Notes: generated from the sequence alone by a model not told the origin. 64,000 nt of DNA from an uncultured Candidatus Saccharibacteria bacterium (GCA_964582465.1 CAZOQX010000003.1:1115-65114); one strand, 5' to 3'. Counted from the first letter of the stretch, positions 18,967 through 53,306 are shown. A program made the numbers and translations.

Positions 18967-19029
18967 GGTTCCCCTTTAATTAACTTCCCTATTAAAACAC
19001 TGTCGGCTGAGAAATCGCTTAACACAGAG

Positions 19030-19057
19030 GTAGCCTGGAGCGTTTGCTCCAGGCTAC
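19030..19057. terminator. Perfect 12-bp stem-loop, a likely terminator for the gene at 19076-19471
   Basis: gtagcctggagc-gttt-gctccaggctac, located 19 nt downstream of the minus-strand stop. Confidence 0.45.
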
Positions 19058-19075
19058 CAGTCGATCGACGCCGCC

Positions 19076-19471
19076 CTACTTGGAAACCGCACAGGCCTGA
19101 GCGAAGGAGGCGTGGTAGCCTTTCTTCGCCGCGAGGTGGGACGCCCAAGGGTACATGTCGCCAGACCGGCGAGTCAGCAGGACGTTGTAGTCCTCCTGGG
19201 CGCCTGCCGGGTCGGTGACGAAGTACACATAGGCCCGAACCGGCCGGTAGCTGCTAGACACGGGCCAGGTCAAGCGTTGCCGCCCATCCCTCCACCCGAT
19301 CTGGATTTTGACCGGACCAGTGAACTTGTAGCGATACGGCCGGTGCTGCCGTGTGGGCTTCGCGATACCATGAATCTGGTTACCACGACAGACCTTGCCG
19401 CTCGCCTGAGCAGGCAAAGCGCCCATCGCCACGACGGACACAATCACTGCCAACCAAATGAAACGCCGCAT
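19076..19471 (-). CDS. Hypothetical secreted protein (131 aa) in a high-GC islet
   Basis: Signal peptide MRRFIWLAVIVSVVAMGALPAQASG. The local G+C is visibly higher than the flanks. No recognisable domain. Confidence 0.5.
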   Translation of the reverse strand: MRRFIWLAVIVSVVAMGALPAQASGKVCRGNQIHGIAKPTRQHRPYRYKFTGPVKIQIGWRDGRQRLTWPVSSSYRPVRAYVYFVTDPAGAQEDYNVLLTRRSGDMYPWASHLAAKKGYHASFAQACAVSK

Positions 19472-19564
19472 TCGACGGCTCCTCTCGGTGGGATTGTCAA
19501 TACTTAACCATGATGTGTGCGTGCTGTCAATGACAGTAGCTCCGGCTCTGTTAAAATTACTGCT

Positions 19565-20635
19565 ATGAGTTTAAAAATCGGCATCGTGGGTTTACCAAAC
19601 GTTGGCAAGTCTACCCTCTTCAATGCCCTAACTAAAAACAACGTCCTTGCGGCCAATTACCCATTTGCGACCATTGAACCGAACGTTGGCATTGTGGCGT
19701 TGCCCGACAAACGTCTGGATGAACTCGCAATGCTTTTTCATCCAGAAAAGATCACCCCGGCCACAGTTACCTTCGTAGACATCGCCGGGCTCGTCGCCGG
19801 TGCCCACAAGGGGGAAGGGTTGGGGAATCAATTCTTGGCACACATCCGCGAAACTGATGCGATTTGCCAAGTTGTGCGGGCGTTCAAGGACCCCAACGTC
19901 ACTCATGTCGACGGCCAGGTTGAACCAAAACGCGATATCGAAACCATTCGTACCGAACTTGCCCTAGCCGACCTCGAGCAGCTTGAGCGTCGAGAAGGAA
20001 AATTGACCTCGGAGGCAAAATCGAGCCACGAAGCCGCCGCAGCACTAGAAGCGGTGCAAAAAGCCAAGCAAGCGCTAGATCAAAAACAATTCTTGGAGTC
20101 GAAGCTTGTCGAGAAATTACCTCCGGACCTTAACCTGCTCACGGCTAAACCGTTCATTTACGCCTTTAATCTAGACGAGGCCGACCTAGGCAACCAATCG
20201 TATCAAAAGGAATTGGCGGCTCTTGTTGATCCATCAAAATCGATTTTTTTATCGGCCAAAATCGAGGCCGAGCTAGCAGACTTGCCGCTCACAGAAGCGA
20301 GCAGTCTCTTGCAAGATCTCGGCCAGAGTCAGTCCGGCCTGGATCAGCTCGCACAAGCTGGTTTTGAAATCTTGGGCTTACAAACTTTCCTCACCGCCGG
20401 ACCAAAAGAAGTACGCGCCTGGACGATTCATCAAGGTGATACGGCACCACAAGCCGCCGGCGTCATTCACACTGACTTTCAAAAGGGCTTCATTCGGGCT
20501 GAGGTGGTAAGTTTTTTCGATTTAATCGCCACCGGCTCCGAATCTGCCGCCAAAGCCGCCGGTAAAGTCAGGTCCGAGGGCAAAGATTACGTCATGCAAG
20601 ATGGAGACGTCGTTGAGTTTAGGTTTAACGTTTAA
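19565..20635 (+). CDS. ychF: Ribosome-binding ATPase YchF (Obg-family GTPase)
   Basis: MSLKIGIVGLPNVGKSTLFNALT... is the P-loop, and it has a C-terminal TGS domain. The start is the second Met of the track ORF. Confidence 0.85.
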   Translation: MSLKIGIVGLPNVGKSTLFNALTKNNVLAANYPFATIEPNVGIVALPDKRLDELAMLFHPEKITPATVTFVDIAGLVAGAHKGEGLGNQFLAHIRETDAICQVVRAFKDPNVTHVDGQVEPKRDIETIRTELALADLEQLERREGKLTSEAKSSHEAAAALEAVQKAKQALDQKQFLESKLVEKLPPDLNLLTAKPFIYAFNLDEADLGNQSYQKELAALVDPSKSIFLSAKIEAELADLPLTEASSLLQDLGQSQSGLDQLAQAGFEILGLQTFLTAGPKEVRAWTIHQGDTAPQAAGVIHTDFQKGFIRAEVVSFFDLIATGSESAAKAAGKVRSEGKDYVMQDGDVVEFRFNV

Positions 20636-21347
20636 TCAACACAAAGAAGCGCTCTACGTTGCCCTTGGTACCGGCAATCTTAGAATCAGCCTCTGCTTTG
20701 ATCTCATATTGATCACTTAATTGTTCACGAAATCGCTGCAATATCTGGATGCGCAAATTATCGTCTTTGATGACACCCCGCGCCCGATTAGCCTCACGCC
20801 TGGTCGCCTCAAATTGCGGTTTGGCAAGCACAACGATTGGCCCGCCCGGTTTAATCAAGGCGGCCATGCTACTGAGTATTTGTCCCAGCGCTATAAAAGA
20901 AACATCTGCCAGTGCCACATCGGGTATCACGGGCAAGCTGGTGACCTGCCTGATATCAGTTCGCTCCATCACTGTGACGCGGGGGTCATTGCGCAATGCA
21001 TAAGCCAGTTGACCATGTCCGACATCAACCGCAATAACCTCAGTCGCGCCGTGCTTAAGAGCAAAGTCAGTAAAACCACCTGTGGAAGCACCGACATCCA
21101 GAACCACCTTGTCCTCTACATTTAGACCAAGTTCGCCAAAGACAGAGGCCAGCTTATCCCCTCCCCGTGAGACATACTTCGGCATCGGCTTTAGGTCGAT
21201 ATCTGCATTTGAATCAACTGCAAGACCAGGTTTCGCGAGCCTACGCCCGCGTGAAAAAACCTCTCCCGCCATGATCATGGCTTGAGCCGCACGCAAATCC
21301 TGAGCCAGGCCTCGTCTGACAAGAAGTGAGTCCAGGCGCTCCTTCAT
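20625..21347 (-). CDS. tlyA: TlyA-family rRNA 2'-O-methyltransferase (S4 domain plus FtsJ-like MTase)
   Basis: RLDSLLVRRGLAQDLRAAQAMIMAGEV is the S4 domain. VLDVGASTGGFTDFALKHGA is the SAM-binding motif. Confidence 0.8.
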   Translation of the reverse strand: MKERLDSLLVRRGLAQDLRAAQAMIMAGEVFSRGRRLAKPGLAVDSNADIDLKPMPKYVSRGGDKLASVFGELGLNVEDKVVLDVGASTGGFTDFALKHGATEVIAVDVGHGQLAYALRNDPRVTVMERTDIRQVTSLPVIPDVALADVSFIALGQILSSMAALIKPGGPIVVLAKPQFEATRREANRARGVIKDDNLRIQILQRFREQLSDQYEIKAEADSKIAGTKGNVERFFVLIKR

Positions 21348-21910
21348 TTGGCTCGTTCGAGGTATTGACCAGTGCGAGTATCAACTTTAATACTGTCACC
21401 AACTTGGATAAAGAGGGGCACCTGGGTTTTTAGCCCGGTTTCAAGGGTGCACGCCTTAAGCGCGGCCGTAACTGTATCGCCGCGGGCACCGGGCTCACAC
21501 TCTGTGACTTTCATGTAGACGGTGTTGGGCAAGTCGATCCCTACCACCCGATCCTGAAATTTGAGAAGCGTTACGGTTGCACCGTCAGCCAAATAATTTA
21601 CCTGCTCTCCCAGCTTGGATGCATCAATTGCCTCTTGTTCAAAGCTGGTTTGGTCCATGAAGTAATACTGATTCCCCTCGCGGTAGAGGTATTGTAGGGC
21701 GGCCCGCTCGAGTTCGGCCGATTGGATTTTATCGGCCGCGCGGAAGGTCTTCTCCACCAGTGCCCCGGTCAGTAAGTTTTTAACCTTAACCCGCGCTACG
21801 GCACCGCCGCGGCCCATAGCCGCATGGGAATAATCCACCACGCGGTAAAGCTCACCGTCGAGCTCGATGAGAGTATCTTTGCGTAAATCCGTGTGACCAA
21901 GCATTGCCAT
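21344..21910 (-). CDS. efp: Elongation factor P
   Basis: 188 aa with ...RGGAVARVKVKNLLTGALVEKTFRA..., the KOW-like domain I including the conserved K, and OB domains II/III. Confidence 0.85.
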   Translation of the reverse strand: MAMLGHTDLRKDTLIELDGELYRVVDYSHAAMGRGGAVARVKVKNLLTGALVEKTFRAADKIQSAELERAALQYLYREGNQYYFMDQTSFEQEAIDASKLGEQVNYLADGATVTLLKFQDRVVGIDLPNTVYMKVTECEPGARGDTVTAALKACTLETGLKTQVPLFIQVGDSIKVDTRTGQYLERAK

Positions 21911-21919
21911 AATTTTCTC

Positions 21920-24371: not shown

Positions 24372-24373
24372 TA

Positions 24374-26155: not shown

Positions 26156-28229
26156 CGCTTGGCTCAGAAATGCTACTTACCAGAATCTCACGCGGCCTGG
26201 CGCCATCGGCCGGGCCAACGATGCCGCGTTCTTCCATTAAATCGATCAACCGAGCCGCCCGCGCATAGCCAATTCTAAGTCGCCGTTGGAGGAGCGAGGC
26301 TGAGGCCTTACCGGAGCGAATCACCATATCGGCTGCCTCCTTAAACAAATCATCATCCACGCCGTCCATACCACCCTCGTAGCCACCACGACCACCGCCG
26401 AGGCGCACCGGCTGAGCCAAAACTTCATCGTTATACTGCGGGGCTCGGGCTTGGCGGAGATAGTCCGTCACTCCCTTAACTTCCTTCTCACTCACGAATG
26501 AGCCCTGCATACGCCTGGGTTTAATGAGCTCGGGACTCAAGAACAGCATGTCACCTTTTCCAACCAGTTTTTCGGCCCCACCCTGGTCAATGATCGTGCG
26601 CGAATCAACTTGGGAGGCGACGGTAAAGGCGATGCGCGCCGGCACATTAGCCTTGATCAAACCCGTAATGACGTTAACACTCGGCCGCTGCGTAGCAAGT
26701 ACCAGGTGAATTCCCGTGGCGCGCGCCAGTTGAGCCAGCCGCACAACCAGCGCTTCCACATCGGATGCTGCTAAACTCATCAGGTCGGCCAACTCATCGA
26801 TCACGATCACGATATAGGGCATCCCCTCTTCTTTGCTCGAAGCGTTATACTCAGCAATGTTACGCTTGCCGCGCTCAGCAAAGAGTTTGAGGCGTCGCTC
26901 CATTTCCGCAACCGCCCACTTGAGCGCCGAAATACACTTCTCCGGCTCCACAATTACCGGGGTCAGCAGGTGCGGCACATCATTATATAAACTGAGCTCC
27001 ACCCGCTTGGGGTCGACCAGGATTAGTTTGAGATCAGCTGGCGAATTGCGATAAAGCAGGCTTAAAAGCAAAGTATTAATCATGACACTTTTACCAGATC
27101 CGGTAGCACCGGCGATCAAAAGATGGGGCATTTTGGCGAGATCAGCCACCTCGGGCGTGCCCGCGACATCGCGCCCGAGGACAAAGCTCAGAGGCGACTT
27201 AGCATCTTTGACCTCCGGCGAGGTCAGAATGTCCTTGAGCCGGACGGTCGCACCAATCTTATGCGGCACCTCAATACCTACCAGGCTCTTACCCGGGATG
27301 GGTGCTTCGACGCGCAAAGGGTGAGCCGCCAGGGCCAAACTCAAGTTATGCTGTAATTCGGTGATTTTGTTGAGCTTCACACCGCTTTCCGGCTTTAAGG
27401 TGTACTGCGTTACGGTCGGGCCCACGTTTACCTCCCCCATCGCAACTTCTATACCGAAGCTCGCGAGGGTTTGCTGAATTGTGCTAGCATTTTCCTTAAT
27501 ATTCCCGGCATCGGCCTGACCCTTAGTTTCTTCCAGCAGATCCAGGCTGGGTGGCTGCCAGTCAGGATCAACCCCGGCGGTCAGAGCTTCGAAGTCCTTC
27601 TCGCTCTTTTCCCCTCGAGCGTTCAGGGTGCCGCGAATCGGCAACTTATTATTTACGACCAGCCCCGCCGGCTCATTAATTTGCAAGTCGGCCTGGCGTC
27701 GGTTCTTGAATAATTCAACAATTTTCTTGATCAAATCGCTCAACTTGGCATTAAAGGCAACTACCAGCGCAATTAGCATGAATGCAACCAGCAACGCCGA
27801 GGAAGCTGCCACATTAAACATCTTTAATAAGAGGAAGCTCAGCCCATAACCAATCAGGCCTCCGCCCCCGCCTTGACTTGCTACATGAGCCGCTTGAGCG
27901 GGATCGGCGCCGATATGGAGCAGGCCGGCCACGGTAATGACGAAGAGGAGAAAGCCGACGTATATATTTACGCGTGATTCGAACTTTTCCGGCAAAAATA
28001 ACATCCAGGCCACTAGTCCCAAGATAATCGGAAGTAAAAAGGCCTCGAGACCGATTAACAGCCTAAACCCGTGAAAAACTCCGCCGGGCAAAAAACCGCC
28101 GACATTAAAGATAGCAAGCAGTAGAATGATCGCGAGCACTGCAAGCAAAATCGCGACAATTTCTTGAACAATGTTGGCATCCAAGCTGGGCTTAAGCTTG
28201 GAAACTTTGGCTTTGCGGCGTCTGGCCAT
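26133..28229 (-). CDS. ftsK: DNA translocase FtsK/SpoIIIE
   Basis: Four N-terminal TM helices, the motor domain ...HLLIAGATGSGKSVMINTLLLSLLY... and a C-terminal gamma winged helix. Confidence 0.9.
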   Translation of the reverse strand: MARRRKAKVSKLKPSLDANIVQEIVAILLAVLAIILLLAIFNVGGFLPGGVFHGFRLLIGLEAFLLPIILGLVAWMLFLPEKFESRVNIYVGFLLFVITVAGLLHIGADPAQAAHVASQGGGGGLIGYGLSFLLLKMFNVAASSALLVAFMLIALVVAFNAKLSDLIKKIVELFKNRRQADLQINEPAGLVVNNKLPIRGTLNARGEKSEKDFEALTAGVDPDWQPPSLDLLEETKGQADAGNIKENASTIQQTLASFGIEVAMGEVNVGPTVTQYTLKPESGVKLNKITELQHNLSLALAAHPLRVEAPIPGKSLVGIEVPHKIGATVRLKDILTSPEVKDAKSPLSFVLGRDVAGTPEVADLAKMPHLLIAGATGSGKSVMINTLLLSLLYRNSPADLKLILVDPKRVELSLYNDVPHLLTPVIVEPEKCISALKWAVAEMERRLKLFAERGKRNIAEYNASSKEEGMPYIVIVIDELADLMSLAASDVEALVVRLAQLARATGIHLVLATQRPSVNVITGLIKANVPARIAFTVASQVDSRTIIDQGGAEKLVGKGDMLFLSPELIKPRRMQGSFVSEKEVKGVTDYLRQARAPQYNDEVLAQPVRLGGGRGGYEGGMDGVDDDLFKEAADMVIRSGKASASLLQRRLRIGYARAARLIDLMEERGIVGPADGARPREILVSSISEPSDGAGYEE

Positions 28230-28298
28230 ATGCCTAAATTATACCGCTAATGGATAAGGTTGACCAGATATGATGAAGCTGCGGCCGCTTCTTGAACG

Positions 28299-28508
28299 CT
28301 AGTTGTCTTTTTCTTCATCTTCGTCTGCGAAGTTCTGCAAAAAACGATTGAAATTCGAAATATAACCCTTGTCTGATCCTAGTAGAGTCAAAAGGTCATC
28401 GTTATTCTGGTCGGTAGGCTCCCTGATCTCTGGTTCGTTTTGATCAGGCTCTTCGTCAACTGATGCCACTGGCGCAAAACTCCCTACTATTAAATACTCA
28501 CAAGACAA
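28299..28508 (-). CDS. Hypothetical small acidic protein (69 aa)
   Basis: The ORF fills the gap between rnj and ftsK. It is extremely D/E-rich and has no recognisable motif. Confidence 0.25.
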   Translation of the reverse strand: MSCEYLIVGSFAPVASVDEEPDQNEPEIREPTDQNNDDLLTLLGSDKGYISNFNRFLQNFADEDEEKDN

Positions 28509-28637
28509 GACTGCATTATACCGCTAGCCTTATTAGATGGAGTCAGTCAAAGACATGAAAACTGCTCGCGAAATCATCAGGCTTTTTTGCAACTTATACA
28601 ATTGCTTACTTGGCTGGGATCTGCTTGTTCGACTAAA

Positions 28638-30440
28638 CTAGATTTCGTTAATTACAGGGATGACCATGGGACTGCGACCGGTGCGGTCGTACAGAAACTG
28701 GCCAATATCATCGCGTAGAGATAGTTTAAAGCGATTCCAGTCCACGGGTTGATTGGGATTGCGGCGTGCAAAAATTTTACGCACCTCATTGCGCGCTTCA
28801 GCAATTAACTGCTCGTTTTCCTTCATGTACACAAAGCCGCGGGAAATGATATCGGGGCTGGTCACCAGCTTGCCCGTTTTTTGGTCTACCATCGCAATCA
28901 CCATGAAGATGCCTTCCGAGGCCATGGTCAGCCGGTCGCGTAGCACAATGCCTTCGACATCCCCTACCCCGTTGCCGTCGATCATGATGAGACCGGCCTG
29001 GACGCGCTGGCCCTTGCGCACGCCGCTGGGAGCTATTTCCAGGCTATCACCATTATTCAGCACAAAGATATTCTCGCGCGGGATTTTAGTTTTGGCGGCG
29101 GCAAACTCGGCGTGGTGTACCTGCATGTGAAACTCGCCGTGAATCGGGATGAAATACTTCGGCCGAATCAGCTCGAGCATTTCGGCGAGCTCCTCGCGAT
29201 GAGCGTGGCCGGACACGTGCAGGATGCCACAATCGTCAATGCGCCGGAAGTAATTATGGTAAACTTTGGAGCCTTCGCGCATCAGATTATCCCAAGTCAT
29301 CACCACGGATTTTTCATTACCGGGAATGATGCTTGAGCTCATAATGACGGCGTCGCCTGGCTTAATCTTTACGAATGGGTGGTCACCGGTAGACATGCGC
29401 GTCAGTGCCGAATTAATTTCACCTTGTGAGCCAGTGCAAATAATACACACCTGATTATCCGGCATGTTCACGATATCTTGCATCCGCGTCACAATCCCCC
29501 GCGGAACTTTAAGGTAACCAAGTTTTACAGCCAGCTCCACGTTTGCAAGCATGCTCCGCCCGTTGAACGATACCTTGCGGCCGGTCCTTTCGGCAGCATT
29601 GATGATGAGCTGCACACGGTTAATCTGGCTGGAGAACGAGGAGATAATGATGCGGCCATTCTGACGCTTAAAGAGCTCCTCGAATGTGGGCTGAATCTCC
29701 ATTTCGCTAGGGGTTCGGCCCTCGATCTCGCAAGCCGTCGAGTCGGACATTAGCACCGTTACACCCTCGTCGCCAATTTCTTTAAGGCGAGTTAGGTCGG
29801 TGGGCTTGTTATCGGCTGGTGAAGGGTCAAAACGGAAGTCGCCGGTGTGCACCACGCGCGCAGCCGGAGTATCAATCACCACGGCGCAAGCGTCCGGAAT
29901 GGCATGCGTCACCCGCACCAGCTCAACTTTGAACTGGCCGAGTTGCACCTTCTCGTGCTTATCGGGGTCAACCACGATCAAGCGTGGTTGAGTTTGCAGG
30001 TGGAATTCCACCAACTTCTTTTCAATCATACCGATGGTAAAGCGAGCTCCATAGAGTGGCGCCTGCAATTTGGGCAGAATGTAGGGAATACCACCCATGT
30101 GGTCTTCGTGAGCGTGCGTAATGACGTGCCCACGGATTTTGGCCTTATTTTTCTCTAAATATGTGACATCGGGAATGACGTAATCAATGCCGGGCTGCTC
30201 GTTCGTGGGAAACATAAATCCCATATCGACTACGATAATGTCGTCGCCAAATTCAAAGGCGGTCATGTTCTTGCCGACTTCTCCCAGGCCACCTAGGGGC
30301 ACAATTTTTAGTTTGGGCTCGTGAGTCGGCTGGTTGGCAATCTGGCCACGATGAGCCTTGTTCTCGCCATTAAACTCCGATCGGTTAACCGGGTCAGCTG
30401 GCGGTAAAGGGTTTTTTACGAGCGGCGGTTTACGCTTCAT
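28638..30440 (-). CDS. rnj: Ribonuclease J (metallo-beta-lactamase / beta-CASP)
   Basis: ...HVITHAHEDHMGGIPYILPKL... is the HxHxDH motif. The length and beta-CASP region are typical of RNase J. Confidence 0.85.
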   Translation of the reverse strand: MKRKPPLVKNPLPPADPVNRSEFNGENKAHRGQIANQPTHEPKLKIVPLGGLGEVGKNMTAFEFGDDIIVVDMGFMFPTNEQPGIDYVIPDVTYLEKNKAKIRGHVITHAHEDHMGGIPYILPKLQAPLYGARFTIGMIEKKLVEFHLQTQPRLIVVDPDKHEKVQLGQFKVELVRVTHAIPDACAVVIDTPAARVVHTGDFRFDPSPADNKPTDLTRLKEIGDEGVTVLMSDSTACEIEGRTPSEMEIQPTFEELFKRQNGRIIISSFSSQINRVQLIINAAERTGRKVSFNGRSMLANVELAVKLGYLKVPRGIVTRMQDIVNMPDNQVCIICTGSQGEINSALTRMSTGDHPFVKIKPGDAVIMSSSIIPGNEKSVVMTWDNLMREGSKVYHNYFRRIDDCGILHVSGHAHREELAEMLELIRPKYFIPIHGEFHMQVHHAEFAAAKTKIPRENIFVLNNGDSLEIAPSGVRKGQRVQAGLIMIDGNGVGDVEGIVLRDRLTMASEGIFMVIAMVDQKTGKLVTSPDIISRGFVYMKENEQLIAEARNEVRKIFARRNPNQPVDWNRFKLSLRDDIGQFLYDRTGRSPMVIPVINEI

Positions 30441-37820: not shown

Positions 37821-37903
37821 TGCTTTAGTTTAGCAGCCCGAGACTTCAAAATTTGAGGGCTCAGGCCGGAGCGCTCTCGCGTCCGGGTCGAACACGTGAA
37901 CGC

Positions 37904-38288: not shown

Positions 38289-38351
38289 TCTTCCTCCCGC
38301 TCCAGGATAAGGTCATTCTCCGGCCTATTCAGGTTCGGCGCAAGCTTAAGG

Positions 38352-42607: not shown

Positions 42608-42722
42608 TACATTAATTATAGCGAAATTGCTTACTTTCGTGCCGCTTAAGGTTGCTAATCAGGTTGTCAGATTGCAAAATTGCTTTATTGGCATTGCCCG
42701 CTCTTCGACAAAAGGAGCAAAG

Positions 42723-43286
42723 TTGAGCACTCCGACCCTGACACGCCCGGCCCGAACCTACTGGAAGGTCGAGCGCCTGAAGCTGAGCTACAGTGGCATC
42801 GAGGAACGTCGCGAACAGGTACGGCTGCAATCCGAGGCCAACCTCATCGCCTCGCTGTGCGCAAATGGTCTCCACGCCCCGGCACTGGATCTCGACTTTG
42901 AGGTCGATACAGTGAACGTCGGAGACCGAACCCTGCTGACCTTCCACAAGCGAGTGCCTATGCGAGGCTTCAAGTCTCTGCTCAGGGCCTGGCAGGCCTC
43001 GGGCATGTGGCCTGGAGGTGAATGGTGGTGGCAGCCAGGAAGCGTGACACTCATGACTCTGTATCCGACGCGCCTAGTCGCCTCCAGCACGCCCGGCCAC
43101 CACCACCTCTACTACGATCGAGAGATCACCTGGGAGGAATACGCCGAGCTGCTACGTGGACTTCGCGACGCCGGGCTCATCCAGCGCGGGTTCTGTCGCA
43201 TGAGCCTCCGGCGCAAAATGACCATGTTGCGCCTCCCCGGGCACACCAAGAAGACCACACCTCTTCAACCCAGGTTCTCCGACTAG
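42723..43286 (+). CDS. Hypothetical protein, first gene of the high-GC islet operon (TTG start; track ORF from 42570)
   Basis: AAAAGGAG lies 5 nt upstream of TTG at 42723. There is an abrupt G+C rise. Trp-rich (GMWPGGEWWWQPGS), with no known motif. Confidence 0.4.
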   Translation: MSTPTLTRPARTYWKVERLKLSYSGIEERREQVRLQSEANLIASLCANGLHAPALDLDFEVDTVNVGDRTLLTFHKRVPMRGFKSLLRAWQASGMWPGGEWWWQPGSVTLMTLYPTRLVASSTPGHHHLYYDREITWEEYAELLRGLRDAGLIQRGFCRMSLRRKMTMLRLPGHTKKTTPLQPRFSD

Positions 43287-43320
43287 TGTCGGCACGCGGA
43301 CAGTTTGATTGGAGGTTCCA

Positions 43321-43527
43321 GTGGCAAAGTTGAAGCCACGACAGAGGCAAATCCTCGCAGCCCTGGTTTCCCTCGGCGGCGAGGGCAGTACCCGCGAGAT
43401 CGCCGAGAAAGCTGGACTCTCTCCGAACGGTGTAGCCCAGACGCTGGGCTCCCCCGCCTTCGACGACATTGTCGAAGGCTTGGACGGCAAGGCCGGCGAC
43501 TACCGGTGGAAACTGCGCGTTCGCTGA
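43321..43527 (+). CDS. Small winged-helix/HTH DNA-binding protein (69 aa; GTG start, alternative TTG at 43309)
   Basis: GGAGG lies 5 nt upstream. RQRQILAALVSLGGEGSTREIAEKAGLSPNGVAQTL is a helix-turn-helix. Confidence 0.5.
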   Translation: MAKLKPRQRQILAALVSLGGEGSTREIAEKAGLSPNGVAQTLGSPAFDDIVEGLDGKAGDYRWKLRVR

Positions 43528-43730
43528 TGCCGAATTTCGGAATCAGCCAATTCGCCGCTGGTTTCACCTACTTCGTCGGTGCGAAACTTCAGCCGATCGC
43601 CGATCTTTTGACCGAACGCCGGTTACATGTGCTCGGCTGTGAGGACCGATTCAACAAGGACCGGCGGCGTCGGAAATTCGGCTGCATGCATTACCCCAAG
43701 GCAGCCATCAGACAATGGAGGAGGCACTGA
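43527..43730 (+). CDS. Hypothetical small basic protein (67 aa)
   Basis: TGATG overlap with the upstream gene. Ends ...RRRRKFGCMHYPKAAIRQWRRH. The next gene starts 1 nt after its stop. Confidence 0.35.
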   Translation: MPNFGISQFAAGFTYFVGAKLQPIADLLTERRLHVLGCEDRFNKDRRRRKFGCMHYPKAAIRQWRRH

Positions 43731-43731
43731 C

Positions 43732-44154
43732 ATGGGTGAGATGTTGGTCGACGGCAGGGATGCCAAGGTCTACATTCTCTGCCGCCAGCCCGGTGACGTC
43801 CCGTTCGCGTGGTACGAATATTGGGTGGTGTTTCGCGATGGCGAAGTGATCGAGGGCGCTAGCACCAGCGTGCACGATCTCTCCATCGTCGGGGACACGC
43901 TCATGCACAGTCGCCGCATCAACAACGCCCAGTTCCAAACCCCGCCCACGCCGGGGCGAGGCAAGTCGTCGGAACGTTGGCCGGTTCGAGTCATTGAACT
44001 CGGCCACTACTACGGCGAGACCGATGAGGTGGACGATGATCCCCTCTTCTGTCGCTACGACTGCGGCGCCTTCATCACCTGGTATGAGGGTGATGCGCCA
44101 TCAGGCGTCGACCCGTTCGGCGAGTGCCCCAACCATCCGGAGGCCAAGCGATGA
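43732..44154 (+). CDS. Hypothetical protein (140 aa) with a possible C-terminal Cys4 zinc ribbon
   Basis: GGAGGAGG lies 8 nt upstream of the ATG. ...CRYDCGAF...GECPNHPE. Confidence 0.45.
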   Translation: MGEMLVDGRDAKVYILCRQPGDVPFAWYEYWVVFRDGEVIEGASTSVHDLSIVGDTLMHSRRINNAQFQTPPTPGRGKSSERWPVRVIELGHYYGETDEVDDDPLFCRYDCGAFITWYEGDAPSGVDPFGECPNHPEAKR

Positions 44155-44417
44155 GAGCTAGGCACTCCCCCACACCCAGTGGCACCCCGATCCGTGATTC
44201 AGAGTCAATCGGGCTCAGAAGCACGTTACTGCGGCAGGCCGCTCCCTTGCGGCGGGCCGCTCTGGACCTTGATCCGGATGCGTGGCGACGAGCGGTTAAA
44301 GTGATCGGCTCTCCCACGGATGTCCGTTATGTGCTCGCCATGTTCGACGACGAACTGCCGGCACAGGCGCTGGAGTTCGCCCGACGCATGCTGGCAAAGA
44401 CGGAGGCATCAAAATGA
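44151..44417 (+). CDS. Hypothetical protein (88 aa)
   Basis: ATGA overlap with the upstream gene. Arg/Ala-rich and helical. Confidence 0.4.
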   Translation: MRARHSPTPSGTPIRDSESIGLRSTLLRQAAPLRRAALDLDPDAWRRAVKVIGSPTDVRYVLAMFDDELPAQALEFARRMLAKTEASK

Positions 44418-44530
44418 GCAAGCAAAAGACAGCTGTGATCGGTGCGGTCGGCCTGCTCGGGCTAGCGATGTTCTACCTCGGGCGGTTCATGGCCAGGCAC
44501 TCGCACGACCTCGGACCCTGCGGCGATTAG
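44414..44530 (+). CDS. 38-aa single-TM micro-protein (MSKQKTAVIGAVGLLGLAMFYLGRFMARHSHDLGPCGD)
   Basis: ATGA overlap with the upstream gene. Too short for the ORF track. It has a hydrophobic core. Confidence 0.4.
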   Translation: MSKQKTAVIGAVGLLGLAMFYLGRFMARHSHDLGPCGD

Positions 44531-44539
44531 GAGGTCAAG

Positions 44540-44638
44540 ATGCGCAAGCTTGTAGGCTACACGCTTCTGGGCATCGCGGCCTACCTCGTTGCCAAGATCA
44601 TCTGGGATTTCCTCGGCCATCTCAGTGAACGGCCATGA
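44540..44638 (+). CDS. 32-aa single-TM micro-protein (MRKLVGYTLLGIAAYLVAKIIWDFLGHLSERP)
   Basis: A perfect AGGAGG lies 5 nt upstream and overlaps the preceding stop. Confidence 0.4.
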   Translation: MRKLVGYTLLGIAAYLVAKIIWDFLGHLSERP

Positions 44639-44645
44639 GCGCCTC

Positions 44646-45038
44646 ATGAGATCTAGCCCACTCCTCAGCCTGCGTGAGCGTGAAGTCGCCGAACTCGCAA
44701 GCTCCGGTCTGACCAACAAGGAGATTGCCGCTCAGCTCGGCCTCTCGCCCGAAACCATCAAGAATCACTTGTCTCATGCCTTCACGAAACTCGGCGTACA
44801 CAACCGAATTGAGCTGGCTCGCGAGATGGTGCACCGCGAGATGATCCGCGCGAGCAGCACGAGGGTGACAATTCTCGCCACGTCCTTTGACGACGGATCT
44901 TGGTTCGTTGCCATCAAGGAGGACGAAACAGTCAGCGTCGTTCCGTTCAGCAAACGTGAGGAATGGGAGGCTTTTCGCCAAGCACTGGAAGTCCTCCAGC
45001 CCTACCTCTGCGCCCAACTGCGGATAATCGAGCGGTGA
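44646..45038 (+). CDS. LuxR/GerE-family HTH regulator with the HTH at the N-terminus and an unknown ~65-aa C-terminal domain
   Basis: LSLREREVAELASSGLTNKEIAAQLGLSPETIKNHLSHAFTKLGVHNRIELA is a textbook LuxR-type HTH. The start is 8 nt after the upstream stop. Confidence 0.6.
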   Translation: MRSSPLLSLREREVAELASSGLTNKEIAAQLGLSPETIKNHLSHAFTKLGVHNRIELAREMVHREMIRASSTRVTILATSFDDGSWFVAIKEDETVSVVPFSKREEWEAFRQALEVLQPYLCAQLRIIER

Positions 45039-45057
45039 GCTCTAGCAGCCCGACACC

Positions 45058-45095
45058 GGGGCCCGGGATTCTAACGAATTCCGGGCCCTTGGCCG
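45058..45095 (+). terminator. Terminator candidate ending the islet operon
   Basis: gggcccgggatt-ctaacg-aattccgggccc (12-bp stem, one mismatch) followed by ttggccgtttta. Confidence 0.45.
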
Positions 45096-45099
45096 TTTT

Positions 45100-45152
45100 A
45101 ATTACAAAGAAAGCGCCCCTGGCTCGTGCAAAGCCTCGGGGCGCAGTCGTTT
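45100..45152 (-). terminator. Rho-independent terminator of rpoD
   Basis: The minus strand reads gcgccccgaggctttgcacgagccaggggcgc (GC stem with an inner 4-bp stem) followed by tttctttgt, immediately after the rpoD stop. Confidence 0.5.
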
Positions 45153-46301
45153 TTAATGCAGGTAATCGCGTAGTTTTTTACTTTCGCGGTGCTTGCGCAG
45201 TTTGGCGAGCGCCTTGGCCTCGATCTGACGAATTCGCTCGCGGGTCACGCCGAATTCCTGTCCCACCTCTTCCAGTGTGTGACTGCGGCCATCGTCTAGC
45301 CCGAAGCGCATGCGTAAAATTTTCTGTTCGCGTGGGGTAAGTAAGTCAAGCATCTCACCTACCTGCTCTTTCAGCAGCTGATCGGTGGCAGCCTCAAGCG
45401 GCGTGCGCGACTCTTCGTCCGGAATGAAATCGCCCAGCGTAGAGTCGGCTTCCTCGCCCACCGGCGCTTCGAGCGACACAATGTCTTGTTTGATCTTCAT
45501 AATGTGATTAACCTTCTCGACTTCCATGTCCATCTCGGCGGCGAGTTCTTCTACCATCGGTTCGCGTCCCAGTTCTTGCTGCAAGCGCCGCTGGGTGCGA
45601 ATCAACTTATTAATCGTCTCCACCATGTGGACGGGGATACGGATGGTACGGGCTTGGTCGGCAATAGCCCGGGTAATAGCCTGGCGAATCCACCAGGTCG
45701 CATAAGTCGAAAACTTGTAGCCCTTGGTGTAATCGAATTTCTCCACAGCGCGGAGTAGGCCAGTGTTACCCTCCTGAATTAGGTCGAGTAAGTCGAGCCC
45801 ACGCCCAATGTATTTTTTCGCGATCGATACCACCAGACGCATGTTGGCCTCAGCCATCTTGTCCTTAGCCCGCTTGCCATCGGCCGCAGCCAGCGTGTTT
45901 TTAGACGCGTTCACGCCCTTCTGGATCCGCTTCGCGAGCGCTACTTCTTCCTCGGCTTTCAGCAAAGGGATTTTACCAATTTCGCGCAGGTACAGCCTAA
46001 CCGAATCGTCGGCCACTGTGTCATCGATATACGTTTCGGGCTTCTCGGGCTGGGTTTCCTCTTCCTCTTCGCCCTGGCCCCACATCAGCTCATCGCGCTG
46101 ATCAATTACTTCAACGCCGGCATCAAACAGTTGCTGGTAAAACTCATCGAGCTCCTCGACATTATCCTCGGCCTCGCCATAGATCGCGCTAACTTCTTGC
46201 TGTGTGACATAGCCACGCTCCTTGCCCTTGGCAATCAGCTGTTCAACTTCGGAATTGGTCGACGCATCTTCTTCTTGTGGTTTCTGAACCTTTTTCGGCA
46301 T
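45153..46301 (-). CDS. rpoD: RNA polymerase sigma factor RpoD (sigma-70)
   Basis: Regions 2-4 are conserved. ...[35 protein letters not shown]... and the C-terminal ...[29 protein letters not shown]. Confidence 0.95.
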
Positions 46302-48034
46302 TATAACTCCTTTACCTTGGCCGACAGCGCTTGGTGTTCGGCCATCAACTTTTGGGCCAAATCGCGCCTACCGGCTCGCTCGGCCTCTTTAATTTGATGC
46401 GTAATTTCTTCGTGGCGTCTCCGGGTGGCCAACACGACTAGTTCTTTTGCCAAGTGGAAGGCTTCGAAACTGCGGTCTTGCGGTCCGATCTCGGAATATT
46501 CTTCTTCGCCCTTTAATGAAAGGATTTTAACATAATCTGACAGTTCTGTCAGATCTCTCGCTATCTGGTCAGAAGTAGCGGCCGGCCTGGCTTTGAGAAA
46601 TTTGCAAATAGCTTGGTGCTCACTCCGGCTGAACAATTCTTCGTCCATATCGGCCAGGCTAGCGCGCAGATCGGGAAAGACTAAGTTCAGAGCCAGCAAG
46701 TTCTCCTCCACCACCTCTTCGCGGCTCAACTGCAGTGGGTCAGCCTTCTCCTTCGCCTCCATCTGGCGGACAGGCTTCGGCTCGGCTTGACTCAGTTTTT
46801 CTTTAATTACGGCGGGCTCACCATCGACCCGTTCAGCCAAAAGTTTAATGTAATGCTCTTGCTCCACCGGATCACGCAGATATTTGAGTACGGGTATGAT
46901 TTGATCGGTAAAACTGCGCTTGCCCAGGGCACTCGCCAGATCGCTGCCTGCCGCGTGGCGCTCAAACAACCAGTCCATGACGTATTTAGCCTCGGAAACG
47001 GCGGTTTGCCACAGCTCTGGCTTTTGCTTAATAAGCTCGTCGGGATCCTTGGCGCCAGCCATATCCACGACCGAAAGTGTTAAATTCAGCTGCTGGCTCA
47101 GGTCAATAGCCCGCTCCGTGGCACGCAGTCCGGCGGCGTCTTGATCAAAGGCCAGTTTGACGTTCTTTGTCAGCCGGCCAACCATCTTCAATTGGTCGAG
47201 CGTAAGCGCTGTGCCGCTCGAGGCTACCACCTGTTTCACGCCGGCCTGGTGGCTTGCCACGACGTCCATGTTCCCCTCTACTATTACAAGTTCGTCATGT
47301 TGTTTGACCGCCTCTTTGGCCAAGTGGAAGCCGTAGAGCACCCGACCCTTGTCATAAATCAGTGTCTGCGGGGTATTAAAATACTTTGGCCCGGTGGCCG
47401 TCGGATCAAGAATCCTCGCGGCGATGCCCACCGGCTCCCCGCGCTCATTAGAAATCGGAAAAGTTATGCGCCCACGAAACATATCAAACGTGCGATTGTC
47501 GCGCTGGCCCGTCAGCCCAGCCTGGTTGAGCTCAGCTATTGTAAAGCCCTGCTTGGTCATAAAGGTGGTCAGCCCTGACTGCGTCACCGGTGCATAGCCG
47601 AGCCGAAAATCTAGAATTGACTGCTTGGTCAGTCCGCGCTGCTTCATATAATCGAGGGCTCGCGGGTTCTTGGTCAGGCTAAGCTGATAGTACTTGACGG
47701 CAAGCGTCATGGCAGCCTTAAGCCGGTCTTTCAGCTTGGTGTTGCTCGGCCCCCGGCTCTTTAATTCCACCCCGGCCCGTTTAGCTAGCACCTCCAAGGC
47801 CTGCCGGAAATCCAAGCCTTCCATTTTCATCACGAATTTAAAGATGTCGCCGCCCTCGCCGCAGCCAAAGCAGTGCCAAATACCCTTTTCGGCGCTCACC
47901 ATCATACTAGGCGTCTTCTCGTTGTGGAACGGACAAACGCCTTTCATATTGCGCCCGGCTGGCTTGAGCTGAACGTAGCTAGCCACCACCTCGGCCACAC
48001 CCAGGCGTTCTTTAATTTCCGCCACTTCATCCAT
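46301..48034 (-). CDS. dnaG: DNA primase DnaG (start chosen at MDEVAEIKE...)
   Basis: The zinc-binding region ...[33 protein letters not shown]... and the TOPRIM domain ...[17 protein letters not shown]... The track ORF extends 183 nt upstream into GC-rich noncoding DNA. Confidence 0.9.
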
Positions 48035-48571
48035 TAGAAGTAATTGTAGCACTTGAAAGCAAGAGCCCCGCCGGATGACCGGCAGGGCCCGCTTGAACCG
48101 CTGTGCTGTGTCGTCACTGTGAGTTATAGATGCTGGCATCCTCGCGGATACTGGCGACACAGTGAGTGCACAGGAGGCAAGACCCCAGCCAGCAGTGCGA
48201 GCAATCCTCGCAGTCATGCGGCGGCCCCACCTTGAAGAAGTCCCGACGCCGCGTCGCGCTGTTCTGGCTCGGAGTCGCTTGCTCGGTACCCGGTGCTGCC
48301 ACAGGGAATCCTCTCTGGAAGACGAAAACGGAGACTGGGAGGGACTTGTCCTAGCATCTCAGACTCACCCACATACGCAGCTGCCATGGTCACTGTGCGT
48401 CCTAGTCATACGTGCCGCCACCTGGCCTCGGGCCCGAGTCGCAAGTGGGCGTCGCAGAGAACTTCTTGAACGACCAGCCGTCCGCTAGATCTAGAATATG
48501 ACGACATCCTTTCACGTTACAAGCATAAGGGCAGTTCGAACTTAAGCGTTTTATGTGATTAAATTAAGCTG

Positions 48572-49143: not shown

Positions 49144-49233
49144 GGAGAGGTCGCATAGTGGCCTAGTGCGCTCGCTTGGAAAGCGGGTGAAGTCGCAAGG
49201 CTTCCGAGGGTTCGAATCCCTCCCTCTCCGCCA
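49144..49233 (+). tRNA. tRNA-Ser (anticodon GGA), class II with a long variable arm and an encoded CCA
   Basis: ggagagg acceptor stem, D-arm gcatagtggcctagtgc, anticodon stem-loop ctcgc-ttGGAaa-gcggg, a long variable arm, T-arm gggttcgaatccc, and ...cctctcc gcca. Confidence 0.85.
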
Positions 49234-49254
49234 ATTTCAAAAAGGTTTGACTTT

Positions 49255-49292
49255 AAAAAGTGATGCCCCGCCTCACGACGGGGCATCACTTT
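49255..49292. terminator. Bidirectional rho-independent terminator
   Basis: aaaagtgatgccccg-cctcacga-cggggcatcactttt is a perfect 11-bp stem flanked by A/T runs. Confidence 0.65.
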
Positions 49293-49315
49293 TGATGCAT
49301 TGTCGATCAGCGGGA

Positions 49316-49651
49316 CTAAATGAGCTGGGAGAGAGCCGCTCGGTCCTCGGCCATCCACAGGTACCCCTTGCGGGTGGTGGTATTGACGAATCCCCCCACT
49401 GCCCACCTCTTGTGGGTCTCGATTACTTCGCCGTCCAACGTCTCAGACATGACCATGCCCTCGATGTTGTGCGTGTGACCAGAACCGTCCTCGTGCTCGA
49501 GACGGCGGATGCGTGCGTAGACGGTGTGGCCATTCGCGAGATCGAGCTTGGCGAACAGTTTCACCGGACTGAAGGCGAATTTATAGCAATCCGCCAGTCG
49601 ATCGTCAGAAGGACAATCGACTATCTCGAGCTTTTCCAACCAATTCGTCAT
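49316..49651 (-). CDS. Hypothetical protein (111 aa) in a high-GC islet adjacent to tRNA-Ser
   Basis: Clean ORF, His-rich (HEDGSGHTHNIEGMV). No motif recognised. Confidence 0.4.
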   Translation of the reverse strand: MTNWLEKLEIVDCPSDDRLADCYKFAFSPVKLFAKLDLANGHTVYARIRRLEHEDGSGHTHNIEGMVMSETLDGEVIETHKRWAVGGFVNTTTRKGYLWMAEDRAALSQLI

Positions 49652-49816
49652 GCCACCCCCTTTGGGGTACGGTGTCTGTCAGGCCGACACTCTCGCCGTT
49701 ACTCCTTTGGGGAGTCACCAGCCCATACGAGCTGGGATTTAATTAGGATAATACCACTTAAGCTTTAGTTTGTCAATTGATTAGCCAAACCACTGACGCG
49801 GATTTACAATTAGGCT

Positions 49817-51717: not shown

Positions 51718-51720
51718 CAA

Positions 51721-52734
51721 CTAGCCTAATTCTTTTTTAAGCTCTTCAACCAAATCGACAGGCAGTGGATCAACCCGGTTTAGAAATGCGAGATACACGC
51801 TCACGAAATCGCCGAGCAGCGTCGTCCATAAAATCTGCTGGATCTTGGTTTCGCCCTTGGCCTCCACTACCAGGGGCTTAGGCATATGCCCAGCGAGCAG
51901 ACGGCTCACGATGTCGTAGCTTTTAACAACGCGTGGATGATCAAAGCTGGATTTAATCTGCACCACTTTCAGCTTTGGTTGCTCCGGGTGGAGCCATCCT
52001 TGGAATTCGTTGTGTTTAAATTCAGGCCAGAGGTAATAAAAAGCTAGATTCTTGGCGTTTTCATTCAGATCAATCTTCCACTTTAAAACTGCCGGCGCCA
52101 TTTGGGTGCTACCGTAAACCACCACGACGTGCCCCTGCAGATCCTGGGCCAGTTGCTTTGCGGGGTTATTCGCCACCGACTTGTCTTTACTCCAGCTAGC
52201 GATTTCTTTAATTAACCACTCCCCCGCTTCTTCCAGCTCAGCCGTTGCACCACTAACTAGACCGACCGACTCAAGTAGCGTCGCCAGTGCTTTGAGCGCA
52301 AAGAAAACGGCCAGGCGGGGCTGCAGGGCCGCTGGGACTTTGAGCATAGGGATTTGCTCGCGTTCGGCCACCTTTTCCAGATCTCCGCCAGAGGCTAAGA
52401 TGACAACTTTAGCATTCCTCCCCTTGGCGTCCTCGAGCGCAGATAGTGCCTCCTCGGTATCACCTGAGTAACTAGAAGCTATCACTAAAGTATTTTCACC
52501 CACCCAAGCCGGCAAATTATAATCACGCACGATTTCGAAGGGCACTTGCAGATCGTCACGCAACCAACACTTAATAAATTCACCTGGCAATGCCGACCCA
52601 CCCATTCCGACAAGAACCACGTTGCTGGGCAGAGGCAGATTAATAGCAAGCGGAAATTGCTGTTTCAGTTGGGTTAGTTGGCCGGCGATTACTGCCAGTG
52701 CATTACCTTGATCAACCTCACGAACATCAGACAT
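51721..52734 (-). CDS. Bifunctional phosphoglucose/phosphomannose isomerase (SIS-domain, PGI/PMI family)
   Basis: ...VVLVGMGGSALPGE... and a second SIS-like half ...VVILASGGD... The length of ~337 aa matches the archaeal-type PGI/PMI. Confidence 0.6.
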   Translation of the reverse strand: MSDVREVDQGNALAVIAGQLTQLKQQFPLAINLPLPSNVVLVGMGGSALPGEFIKCWLRDDLQVPFEIVRDYNLPAWVGENTLVIASSYSGDTEEALSALEDAKGRNAKVVILASGGDLEKVAEREQIPMLKVPAALQPRLAVFFALKALATLLESVGLVSGATAELEEAGEWLIKEIASWSKDKSVANNPAKQLAQDLQGHVVVVYGSTQMAPAVLKWKIDLNENAKNLAFYYLWPEFKHNEFQGWLHPEQPKLKVVQIKSSFDHPRVVKSYDIVSRLLAGHMPKPLVVEAKGETKIQQILWTTLLGDFVSVYLAFLNRVDPLPVDLVEELKKELG

Positions 52735-52815
52735 GTCTCTATTATGCCATAAACGTATGATGCAAGAAGCCCGCCATCCAGGCGAAACTCCTCGCGTCAG
52801 ATGACGGGCATGTGG

Positions 52816-53205
52816 CTAGTCGGGGTAGATGGGCTCATCCCCGGTCATAATGAAGTGAAGGAAGACGTCTGCTACCCCTGGCAAGGCTTCATCCTCTGCC
52901 GGCTTATCCTTTACCGGGTCGCGGCCCTTCCAGCTCAAGAACTCGACAGCTGCCCTCATCGACAGCGAGCGGCGCACCTCTTGAGCTGAGAGTCGTGTGT
53001 GCTCTCTTGGGACCTCTTCAACCGTGGTATCGGCGCCGCTTGCGTCGATGTAAGCAGAGATGACCAGGGTCGTGGCCAAGACATTGCGAATCCTCACTAT
53101 CCCAACGGGCGAATGTACCGCACCCGCCGCCCGGGGATGCCATAAAGACAGGGCCTGGAACAAAGCTGTGGCCCGAATGTCTTCTTCTCTTGAGAGCAGA
53201 CTCAC
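52816..53205 (-). CDS. Questionable hypothetical ORF (129 aa) in a high-GC islet between groEL and pgi/pmi
   Basis: Only overlapping, mutually exclusive ORFs exist here on both strands. Coding status cannot be resolved by eye. Confidence 0.2.
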   Translation of the reverse strand: MSLLSREEDIRATALFQALSLWHPRAAGAVHSPVGIVRIRNVLATTLVISAYIDASGADTTVEEVPREHTRLSAQEVRRSLSMRAAVEFLSWKGRDPVKDKPAEDEALPGVADVFLHFIMTGDEPIYPD

Positions 53206-53279
53206 TTTCCCTCCTCGGGGCTGGGTCCAACCAATTTTTCATCACCTCGAAGTAATTTACAAGCATAACAAAAAAGGAG

Positions 53280-53306
53280 CACGCGGGCTCCTTTTTGAAA
53301 ATCGTG
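53280..53306. terminator. Rho-independent terminator of the groES-groEL operon (bidirectional hairpin)
   Basis: aaaaaggagc-acgcgg-gctcctttttg, about 10 nt after the groEL stop on the minus strand. Confidence 0.65.

Follow-up and report, generated by a model that had tools for sequence, protein, structure and literature searches.

Where do short, abruptly GC-rich patches between the housekeeping genes of a bacterial genome come from? We asked this of a 64,000-nucleotide stretch of DNA, here called the window, from an uncultured Candidatus Saccharibacteria bacterium (GCA_964582465.1 CAZOQX010000003.1:1115-65114). A preliminary description of the window had reported six such islets besides a unit at 42.7-45.1 kb, most of them carrying small orphan open reading frames (ORFs), and had suggested that foreign DNA was acquired piecemeal, with an actinobacterial host as a plausible source. 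We numbered the islets 1, 2, 3, 5, 6 and 7 and treated the 42.7-45.1 kb unit as a separate block (table 1). Our analysis indicates that the six islets and the 2.45-kb block are probably horizontally acquired, high-GC, phage-like DNA that was inserted piecemeal into intergenic junctions or hotspots. The organism had been supposed to be a member of the Saccharibacteria, and rightly so: some of the proteins homologous to its HolA (50-58% identical) are named Candidatus Saccharimonadales, which places it in the Saccharimonadales.

The mean GC content of the window is 0.523. Raw GC of the islets deviates only modestly from sliding windows of the same size (z 1.15-2.4), and three regions alone, islet 1, islet 3 and the block, are clear outliers. 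The abrupt, recurrent rises of the preliminary description were nevertheless borne out at all six islets by GC ranks, codon positions and a Markov scan taken together. The best non-overlapping 400-nucleotide GC windows of the whole 64 kb fall mostly on islet or block loci. GC content at third codon positions (GC3) was 0.77, 0.82, 0.73, 0.73 and 0.66 in the ORFs of islets 1, 2, 3, 6 and 7, respectively, compared with a mean of 0.59 in 120-codon chunks of the core (standard deviation 0.053, 99th percentile 0.708, maximum 0.733). Four of the five islet ORFs thus exceed the core 99th percentile, and all show the usual order GC3 > GC1 > GC2. Outside the islet and block ORFs, none of the approximately 60 genes of the window has a GC3 above 0.66.

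Dinucleotide composition was compared with δ*, a GC-normalised dinucleotide relative-abundance distance given here × 1000. The pooled islets lay at a δ* of 158 from the rest of the window, while size-matched random core sets gave 47 ± 15 (maximum 98) and none of 500 reached the observed value; k-mer composition thus agreed with the earlier proposal. The block lay at 154 from the core (null 57 ± 20, reached by 0 of 500 shuffles). Islets and block were 59 apart, approximately the value expected for two samples of one source. As a control, we took six core segments matched for GC content (59.4% GC), which stayed at a δ* of 28 from the core and approximately 140 from the islets and the block. Because GC-matched core segments keep the native signature, the islets are not merely GC-rich but compositionally foreign. 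Between core and foreign DNA, relative abundance shifts from 1.25 to approximately 1.0 for AA/TT, from 1.25 to approximately 1.0 for GC, from 0.82 to approximately 0.5 for TA and from 0.93 to 1.2 for GA/TC. Islets and block share one compositional type, with high GC, low TA and high GA/TC and without the AA/TT and GC excess of the host. Taken singly, islets 3, 5, 6 and 7 were nearer to the block than to the core; no more than 4% of pieces drawn at random from the core are.

We also trained a second-order Markov model on nothing but the block, taking the rest of the window (islets included) as background. Its main peaks outside the block fell on all six islets, with z values of 2.7-4.2. A further peak at 60174-60595 was taken as a false positive; it falls within core genes, which from their translations alone we take to be TsaD and a FemAB-like gene.

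The connection to phages comes from the first ORF of the block, ORF1. Islet and block ORFs were searched against the profiles of Pfam, PHROG, NCBIfam and PADLOC. ORF1 matched phrog_10893 and phrog_18245, which are of unknown function, and 120 phage records, every one of them (120/120) an actinophage, with hosts in six genera (Mycobacterium, Gordonia, Microbacterium, Arthrobacter, Rhodococcus and Curtobacterium). In metagenomes, its homologues lie on contigs of 58-68% GC and adjoin genes for portal, protease, holin and DnaB proteins, and the family occurs on 33 IMG/VR contigs with a median GC of 65%. ORF1 has the conserved motifs HAPALDLD and SSTPGHHHLY, and the family alignment has invariant residues in HAPALDxD and SSTPGHHHLY. 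An AlphaFold2 (AF2) model of ORF1 (predicted local distance difference test, pLDDT, 89) gave no significant match in PDB, and the top structural neighbours of this predicted fold in BFVD, all at probability 1.00, were actinophage proteins. By homology, ORF1 is a phage-family gene; the family is uncharacterised, possibly enzymatic, and found in DNA-metabolism gene regions of actinophages.

The composition of the foreign DNA was also compared with candidate donors. For this, islets and block were pooled (4.56 kb). The pooled DNA lay at a δ* of 59 from Arthrobacter phage Peas, within self-sampling noise (47 ± 15), and at 56.2 from Gordonia phage ParvusTarda, marginally beyond it (36 ± 12, 95% limit 55.9). 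Distances were 94 to a Nonomuraea locus, 166 to a Tsukamurella locus and 127 to a Tistrella locus. Of two high-GC Saccharimonadales loci, L069 lay at 133 from the pooled DNA and L059 at 153 from the islets and 150 from the block. Phage loci were altogether nearer to the foreign signature than high-GC bacterial loci (Mann-Whitney p = 0.008). With a signature close to actinophages and far from L069 and L059, the foreign DNA looks more like the product of a phage-like pool of high GC than of other Saccharimonadales. Actinobacteria or actinophages are plausible donors, not proven ones.

We searched for homologues of the islet proteins exhaustively with HMMER among 1.84 billion representative proteins. 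The proteins of islets 1, 2, 3 and 7 matched only themselves, and these four of the five islet proteins count as true orphans. The islet 6 protein had four weak, distant homologues (E 2.5e-6 to 3.5e-4), which share its DGPS and LEHEDGSG motifs. One of them is encoded in a related genome, L059 (GCA_035459425.1), where the immediate neighbours differ and the gene is GC-rich too; the L059 contig lies at a δ* of 27 from the window core, and the Mur ligases of contig and window are 52% identical. The small proteins had been described as orphans, which fits four islets but not islet 6. In Pfam the islet ORFs matched no integrase, transposase or recombinase family, PHROG and NCBIfam gave no match to them, and PADLOC returned nothing. 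The islets matched nothing in phage or plasmid collections, as protein or as DNA.

Synteny offers a view of the sites themselves. DnaG scans of GTDB representatives and JGI metagenomes returned full-length homologues of at most 44% identity and short fragments of 47-53%, with dnaG-rpoD as the only synteny. Usable relatives came via HolA homologues, and five contigs were compared (L066, L068, L069, L103 and L104). The window and these five relatives have a common backbone, dnaG-rpoD-[slot]-polA-[slot]-fpg-[slot]-holA-(gene of approximately 68 amino acids)-S20-[slot]-DHH-truB-S15-PNPase-UDG-RNase J, in which the block occupies the rpoD/polA slot, islet 3 the fpg/holA slot and islet 2 the S20/DHH slot. 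At the S20/DHH junction, L069 and L103 have no gene, whereas L066, L068 and L104 have unrelated ones; the fpg/holA junction varies among the relatives, fpg abutting holA in L069; and the rpoD/polA slot holds other genes in all five. Among the slot genes of the relatives are a LysM plus Rpf-like transglycosylase gene, WhiB, an extra sigma factor, DNMK-type kinases, proteins with YkuD and NAGPA domains, and orphans, and none in the five relatives is similar to the islet genes of the window. They are GC-enriched in L066 (57% versus 50%), L068 (58% versus 51%) and L103 (55% versus 51%), but not in L069 or L104, and their signature is not like that of the window islets (δ* 115-169). Since the slots are empty or filled with unrelated genes while the flanks stay syntenic, the three junctions appear to be lineage-wide hotspots of variable content. 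The slots of islets 2 and 3 and of the block thus proved variable, in support of the earlier proposal, although among distant relatives and not between strains.

These slots and their surroundings gave some further observations. In L066, the S20/DHH slot holds a WhiB-family gene (PF02467; 12573-12848) of 63% GC and the rpoD/polA slot the LysM plus Rpf-like transglycosylase gene (PF06737; 3933-4550) of 61% GC, each against 50% in the core. Directly 3' of rpoD, L069 has a 69-residue ORF (3923-4132) that resembles sigma-70 region 4 and is 38% identical to the C-terminus of the window RpoD (E 8e-13). The next gene encodes a DNMK-type kinase, and the corresponding slot of L104 also contains a DNMK gene. 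The 68-residue ORF between S20 and holA in the window (36137-36343, plus strand) belongs to no Pfam family. It is found at the same position with approximately 40-48% identity in L066, L068 and L069, a 68-residue ORF lies there in L103 and L104 as well, and it looks like a lineage-wide core micro-protein.

We propose that a pool of high-GC phages or mobile elements would have been the source of the islets and the block, and that phages infecting high-GC hosts, for example Actinobacteria, are the most plausible candidates. Entry would have occurred in several separate events, because the order of the backbone is intact and a single insertion followed by scattering is less parsimonious. The likeliest route would be DNA uptake followed by illegitimate or flank-homology recombination, because machinery dedicated to integration is no longer present. 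A reduced genome has a bias towards deletion, which may then have trimmed the inserts to single-gene cassettes, one of which would now be a pseudogene. As pictured here, the cassettes would run co-directionally with the flanking housekeeping genes, each behind its own Shine-Dalgarno (SD) site, and any expression would rely on these sites, possibly with read-through from neighbours.

Several points weigh against an acquisition of phage-like DNA. No integrase, transposase or convincing attachment (att) repeat was found at any islet or at the block, and the phage link of the foreign DNA rests on one gene, ORF1. The phage reference loci were picked for their ORF1 homologue, phages of high-GC hosts other than Actinobacteria having been left out, and three of the 33 IMG/VR contigs with the ORF1 family have a GC content of approximately 42%. 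One core gene has the same GC3 as the islet 7 ORF (0.66). Islets 1 and 2, when each is considered by itself, are shifted towards the block in δ* but are not significantly nearer to it than to the core. The synteny comparison spans the slots of the block and of islets 2 and 3, with islets 1, 6 and 7 outside its reach; for islet 5 it offers a short view, 0.4-1 kb 5' of dnaG in two relatives, where the sequence differs. The nearest relatives are also distant, with HolA at 50-58% identity. Of the piecemeal acquisition put forward in the preliminary description, the foreign composition and the variable slots hold, while the actinobacterial source draws on ORF1 only and is suggestive.

That source can be made more specific: the donor might have been the actinobacterial host of this epibiont or the phages of that host, with host DNA released on phage lysis, taken up and occasionally fixed. 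We regard this as possible but doubtful. The known cultured members of the Saccharimonadales, to which the organism belongs, live on Actinobacteria. The phage records of ORF1 and its BFVD neighbours are all from actinophages, but the phage database is itself rich in actinophages and the three ORF1-family phage contigs of approximately 42% GC do not fit. Similarly, the pooled signature is near to the Arthrobacter and Gordonia phages while the actinobacterial loci tested, from Nonomuraea and Tsukamurella, are far from it. WhiB (PF02467) and Rpf-type transglycosylases (PF06737) are families typical of Actinobacteria, and both occur in the slots of relatives; islet 2 has weak matches only to two-transmembrane families recognised as actinobacterial. 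Yet no islet protein or DNA had a match in the phage and plasmid collections, and none of the matches among the 1.84 billion proteins was actinobacterial. Taken a step further, the epibiont would repeatedly capture DNA of the phages of its high-GC (actinobacterial) host and keep it as orphan single-gene cassettes of secreted, membrane or regulatory type at fixed hotspots, a scenario that we consider speculative and rather unlikely.

Cassettes could instead have been swapped among Saccharimonadales or other Patescibacteria, from higher-GC donors by homologous recombination via the conserved flanks. Among the transfers into Patescibacteria that have been detected, the majority are reported to have a donor within the same group (PMC12455944), which counts for such exchange, as does the hotspot pattern kept across the relatives. 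Some relatives have 56-58% GC and a GC3 of approximately 0.73 (L069 and L059), and the homologues of islet 6 include one in a related genome. The foreign signature is, however, far from every Saccharimonadales locus tested, all of which stay at a δ* of 27-80 from the window core; the slot genes of relatives are likewise remote from the islets; and four islet proteins have no homologue in any sequenced relative covered by the protein search. Exchange within the Patescibacteria is, in our view, an unlikely source of the islets.

We think it very unlikely that the islets are native, fast-evolving, lineage-specific small genes whose composition results from expression, protein type or local mutation bias, with no transfer. 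All five ORFs run in the direction of their neighbours and have ordinary host-type SD sites, the islet 6 family is GC-rich in its relative too, and orphan status is common among small proteins. Strong, actinobacterial-style SD sites had in fact been read as a foreign mark, an argument that fails because native GroEL, GroES and RpoD genes have equally good AGGAG sites. If expression shaped the composition, highly expressed native genes should share it, but groEL, groES, rpoD, S20 and S15 have an ordinary GC3 of 0.56-0.64. Local GC content does not account for it either: GC-matched native segments keep the native signature, and ordinary intergenic DNA looks AT-rich (approximately 45% GC over 28001-28800, a gap between two genes included). 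The islets moreover share the signature of a block that holds a phage gene, and the same junctions are empty or otherwise filled in relatives. Chimeric joins or a binning error in this metagenome-derived contig are extremely improbable, given that an independent Logan contig (L001, SRR9179560) is 100% identical over 18700-21918, islet 1 and both flanks, that NCBI and Logan each have records of the islet 1, 2, 6 and 7 proteins, that every islet lies within a syntenic backbone with flanking genes, terminators and start sites intact, and that seven chimeras each precisely intergenic are implausible.

Table 1. Coordinates of the islets, the block and associated features in the window (aa, amino acids; nt, nucleotides; HTH, helix-turn-helix; region z values are relative to sliding windows of the same size; ranks are among non-overlapping 400-nt windows).
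Feature	Position	Strand	Description
Islet 1	18992-19490		Markov peak, z 3.2; between a 133-aa gene of native composition (18565-18966) and ychF (19517-20635)
Islet 1 region	18970-19500		GC 0.595, z 2.3
Islet 1 GC peak, 400 nt	19038-19437		GC 0.635, rank 2
Islet 1 ORF	19076-19471	-	131 aa; ORFan; GAGAGGAG SD site
Islet 2	35325-35697		Markov peak, z 3.1; fills S20/DHH junction
Islet 2 region	35265-35700		GC 0.567, z 1.3
Islet 2 GC peak, 400 nt	35349-35748		GC 0.598, rank 9
Islet 2 ORF	35401-35679	-	92 aa (79 aa from ATG 35640); ORFan; two hydrophobic segments
Islet 3	37781-38347		Markov peak, z 4.2, highest outside block; fpg/holA junction, adjoins histidine-phosphatase gene
Islet 3 region	37850-38350		GC 0.601, z 2.4
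Islet 3 GC peak, 400 nt	37858-38257		GC 0.620, rank 5
Islet 3 ORF	37904-38287	-	127 aa; ORFan; GGGAGGAAG SD site
Block	42650-45100		2.45 kb; fills rpoD/polA junction
Block region	42700-45100		GC 0.606, z 3.9
Block ORF1	42723-43286	+	187 aa; AAGGAG SD site; uncharacterised phage protein family
Block ORF	43309-43527	+	72 aa; weak HTH signature (sub-threshold Sigma70_r4 and HTH); GC3 0.73
Block ORF	43627-44154	+	175 aa (140 aa from MGEML methionine at 43732); GC3 0.73-0.77
Block ORF	44124-44417	+	97 aa; weak coding score; real gene uncertain
Block LuxR/GerE-type HTH regulator	44589-45038	+	149 aa; PF00196 GerE, E 7.8e-20
Imperfect direct repeat, 30 nt	42618-42647	+	Left copy; partner 45165-45194 is the last rpoD codons; 22/30 matching
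Islet 5	48041-48543		Markov peak, z 3.5; 5' of dnaG; no intact long ORF
Islet 5 region	48035-48571		GC 0.570, z 1.5
Islet 5 GC peak, 400 nt	48063-48462		GC 0.630, rank 4
Islet 6	49242-49739		Markov peak, z 3.3; between tRNA-Ser(GGA) and ABC transporter
Islet 6 region	49300-49700		GC 0.576, z 1.5
Islet 6 ORF	49316-49651	-	111 aa; small family with DGPS and LEHEDGSG motifs; 83 nt from tRNA-Ser
Islet 7	52752-53253		Markov peak, z 2.7-2.8; between groEL terminator hairpin (53271-53296) and pgi
Islet 7 region	52750-53300		GC 0.559, z 1.15
Islet 7 GC peak, 400 nt	52762-53161		GC 0.600, rank 7
Islet 7 ORF	52816-53205	-	129 aa; ORFan; GTG start; GAGGAGGG SD site; GC3 weakest of set
TATAAT-like hexamer, DHH	35258-35275		
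TATAAT-like hexamer, polA	42608-42625		
TATAAT-like hexamer, dnaG	48035-48050		
TATAAT-like hexamer, ABC	49800-49816		
TATAAT-like hexamer, pgi	52735-52750		

In five of the islets there is a single small ORF, which in every case lies on the minus strand and is co-directional with its neighbours (table 1); the earlier descriptions of these ORFs were largely accurate. The protein of islet 1 had been called secreted; its N-terminus, MRRFIWLAVIVSVVAMGALPAQASG, is predicted from sequence alone to be signal-peptide-like, and the ORF matched nothing in Pfam, PHROG, PADLOC or NCBIfam. The micro-protein of islet 2, described as having two transmembrane segments and a ribosome-binding site, has two hydrophobic segments, and GAAGGGGGAGG precedes its internal ATG at 35640. 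Its only matches were sub-threshold and to two-transmembrane families including DUF3040, DUF3093, Rv2743c/PspM and SepX/GlpR. These are recognised as actinobacterial membrane-hairpin families, and the matches may reflect just a generic Arg/Trp-flanked hairpin. The protein in islet 3 exists as reported except for its length, 127 rather than 128 residues, and an identical call is present in a public collection (P0008). The islet 6 protein does lie next to tRNA-Ser(GGA) (49144-49233, plus strand), the sole RNA gene found in the window. At this tRNA, islet 6 shows no duplicated tRNA end, and apart from the block and islet 6 no direct repeats were found at the islets. An AF2 model of the islet 6 protein (pLDDT 85) had its best PDB match at E 0.08, and we assigned no function to the family. 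For islet 7, which has the lowest GC3, the dinucleotide signature is one of those nearer to the block than to the core.

Islet 5 had been described as noncoding. It indeed has no intact long ORF, but over approximately 400 nucleotides one minus-strand frame (approximately 48114-48515) carries a coding-like period-3 GC signal, broken by TAG, TGA and TAG. A structured RNA was considered for 48035-48571 and rejected: no Rfam match was found at the gathering threshold or at E ≤ 1, and fold z-scores were -0.55 and +0.19. There was no blastn match in the phage and plasmid collections. Most simply, islet 5 would be a decayed gene of the same compositional class as the other islets. Its sole intact ORF, just 5' of dnaG (48114-48302, minus strand, 62 codons), is Cys-rich and contains DCEDCSHCWLGSCLLCTHC; relatives carry unrelated small ORFs at this position. 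The mechanically called dnaG ORF (46301-48217, minus strand) extends 61 codons upstream into islet 5, and the start that fits the homologues and the upstream TACAAT is ATG 48034, giving 577 residues.

The block is bordered on one side by the terminator hairpin of rpoD and on the other by the TATAAT just 5' of the polA ATG, and its five ORFs are all on the plus strand, opposite to the flanking rpoD and polA. The C-terminus and terminator of rpoD are like those of relatives. Because rpoD keeps both, and polA keeps its TATAAT, the block can be read as an intergenic insertion. An imperfect direct repeat of 30 nucleotides surrounds it; the window has no better match to that 30-mer, and approximately 3.5% of random 30-mers have an equal match within ±3 kb. 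As evidence for an att site the repeat is weak, because its left copy shares sequence with the TATAAT that precedes the polA ATG. Integration into the 3' end of rpoD was rejected on this overlap, on the poor match of the repeat (22/30) and on the relative-like C-terminus and terminator of rpoD. Searches of Pfam and PHROG found no structural, lysis or integrase domains in the block. None of the phage loci that carry ORF1 has any of the other block ORFs, and the phage collection lacks them as well; the 175-residue ORF matched no family and had no tblastn match in the phage or plasmid sets. Plasmid matches of the LuxR protein span its HTH domain only and come from mixed taxa. We also considered an anti-phage defence system and rejected it: in PADLOC, the LuxR protein and the 72-residue ORF resemble CARF-associated regulators at the HTH level only, and the islets gave nothing.

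The window offers some observations on the organism beyond the islets. Many housekeeping genes have a TATAAT-like hexamer ending approximately 6-8 nucleotides 5' of the ATG and no SD site (examples in table 1). Because of this arrangement, leaderless transcripts may be widespread in the organism. Perfect or near-perfect hairpins of 13-15 bp lie between convergent or tandem genes: a perfect 15-bp hairpin at 49256-49293 between tRNA-Ser and the islet 6 ORF, a perfect 13-bp hairpin at 19029-19058 downstream of the islet 1 ORF, and one at 53271-53296 after groEL. They are probably terminators. GC skew is negative nearly throughout the window, cumulative skew falls monotonically and the minus strand carries most genes; the window appears to lie inside one replichore.

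If the epibiont does capture phage DNA of its host, this would be gene flow from phages to an epibiont across phyla, which might supply host-interaction factors. Because Saccharibacteria genomes are tiny and host-dependent, any recently imported gene is a candidate for such a role. Should the donor be confirmed, the islets would be direct genomic evidence of whom an uncultured organism lives on. They also suggest that a single gene can make up a whole import and that imports return to the same junctions throughout an order; here they carry one coherent signature that resembles actinophages.

Hotspots of variable integration that lie between core genes are a familiar concept, as are orphans derived from phages, and acquired DNA and orphan genes are usually AT-rich. 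As in known hotspots, the three junctions hold unrelated genes in each of six genomes between syntenic flanks; here, however, they are only three, compared at family-level divergence, and instead of large islands they contain between one and six genes. Like cryptic prophage remnants, the block combines a gene of a phage-only family (phrog_10893/18245) with HTH regulators and orphans, but genes for structural proteins, lysis or integrase are absent from it, its gene order is that of no known phage, and the hosts of its phage relatives are of another phylum than the recipient. In Patescibacteria, reports exist of genomic islands, of prophages and of horizontal transfer amounting to up to 13% of the genome (PMC12455944). 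Atypical composition is the classical criterion for horizontally acquired regions, and the islets are like genomic islets defined in this way in their atypical GC, codon-position GC and signature, their location between core genes, their small cargo of unknown function and one tRNA neighbour. They differ in being far smaller (0.4-0.5 kb with a single gene, and one block of 2.45 kb), in having no integrase, transposase or clear direct repeats, and in being GC-rich relative to the host. In Saccharibacteria, many lineage-specific genes have been inferred to be acquired from divergent, independent sources (PMC7427843). Those were metabolic genes of mammal-associated groups, identified by phylogeny, whereas here the evidence is compositional and the genes are orphans, in an organism known from metagenome assemblies only with relatives from environmental samples. 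The window therefore presents not a new type of element but small genomic islets, which are already known as a kind of feature, in a clean and well-controlled example, and is unusual in the very small size of the units, in an import that is GC-rich rather than AT-rich and in its coherent actinophage-like signature.

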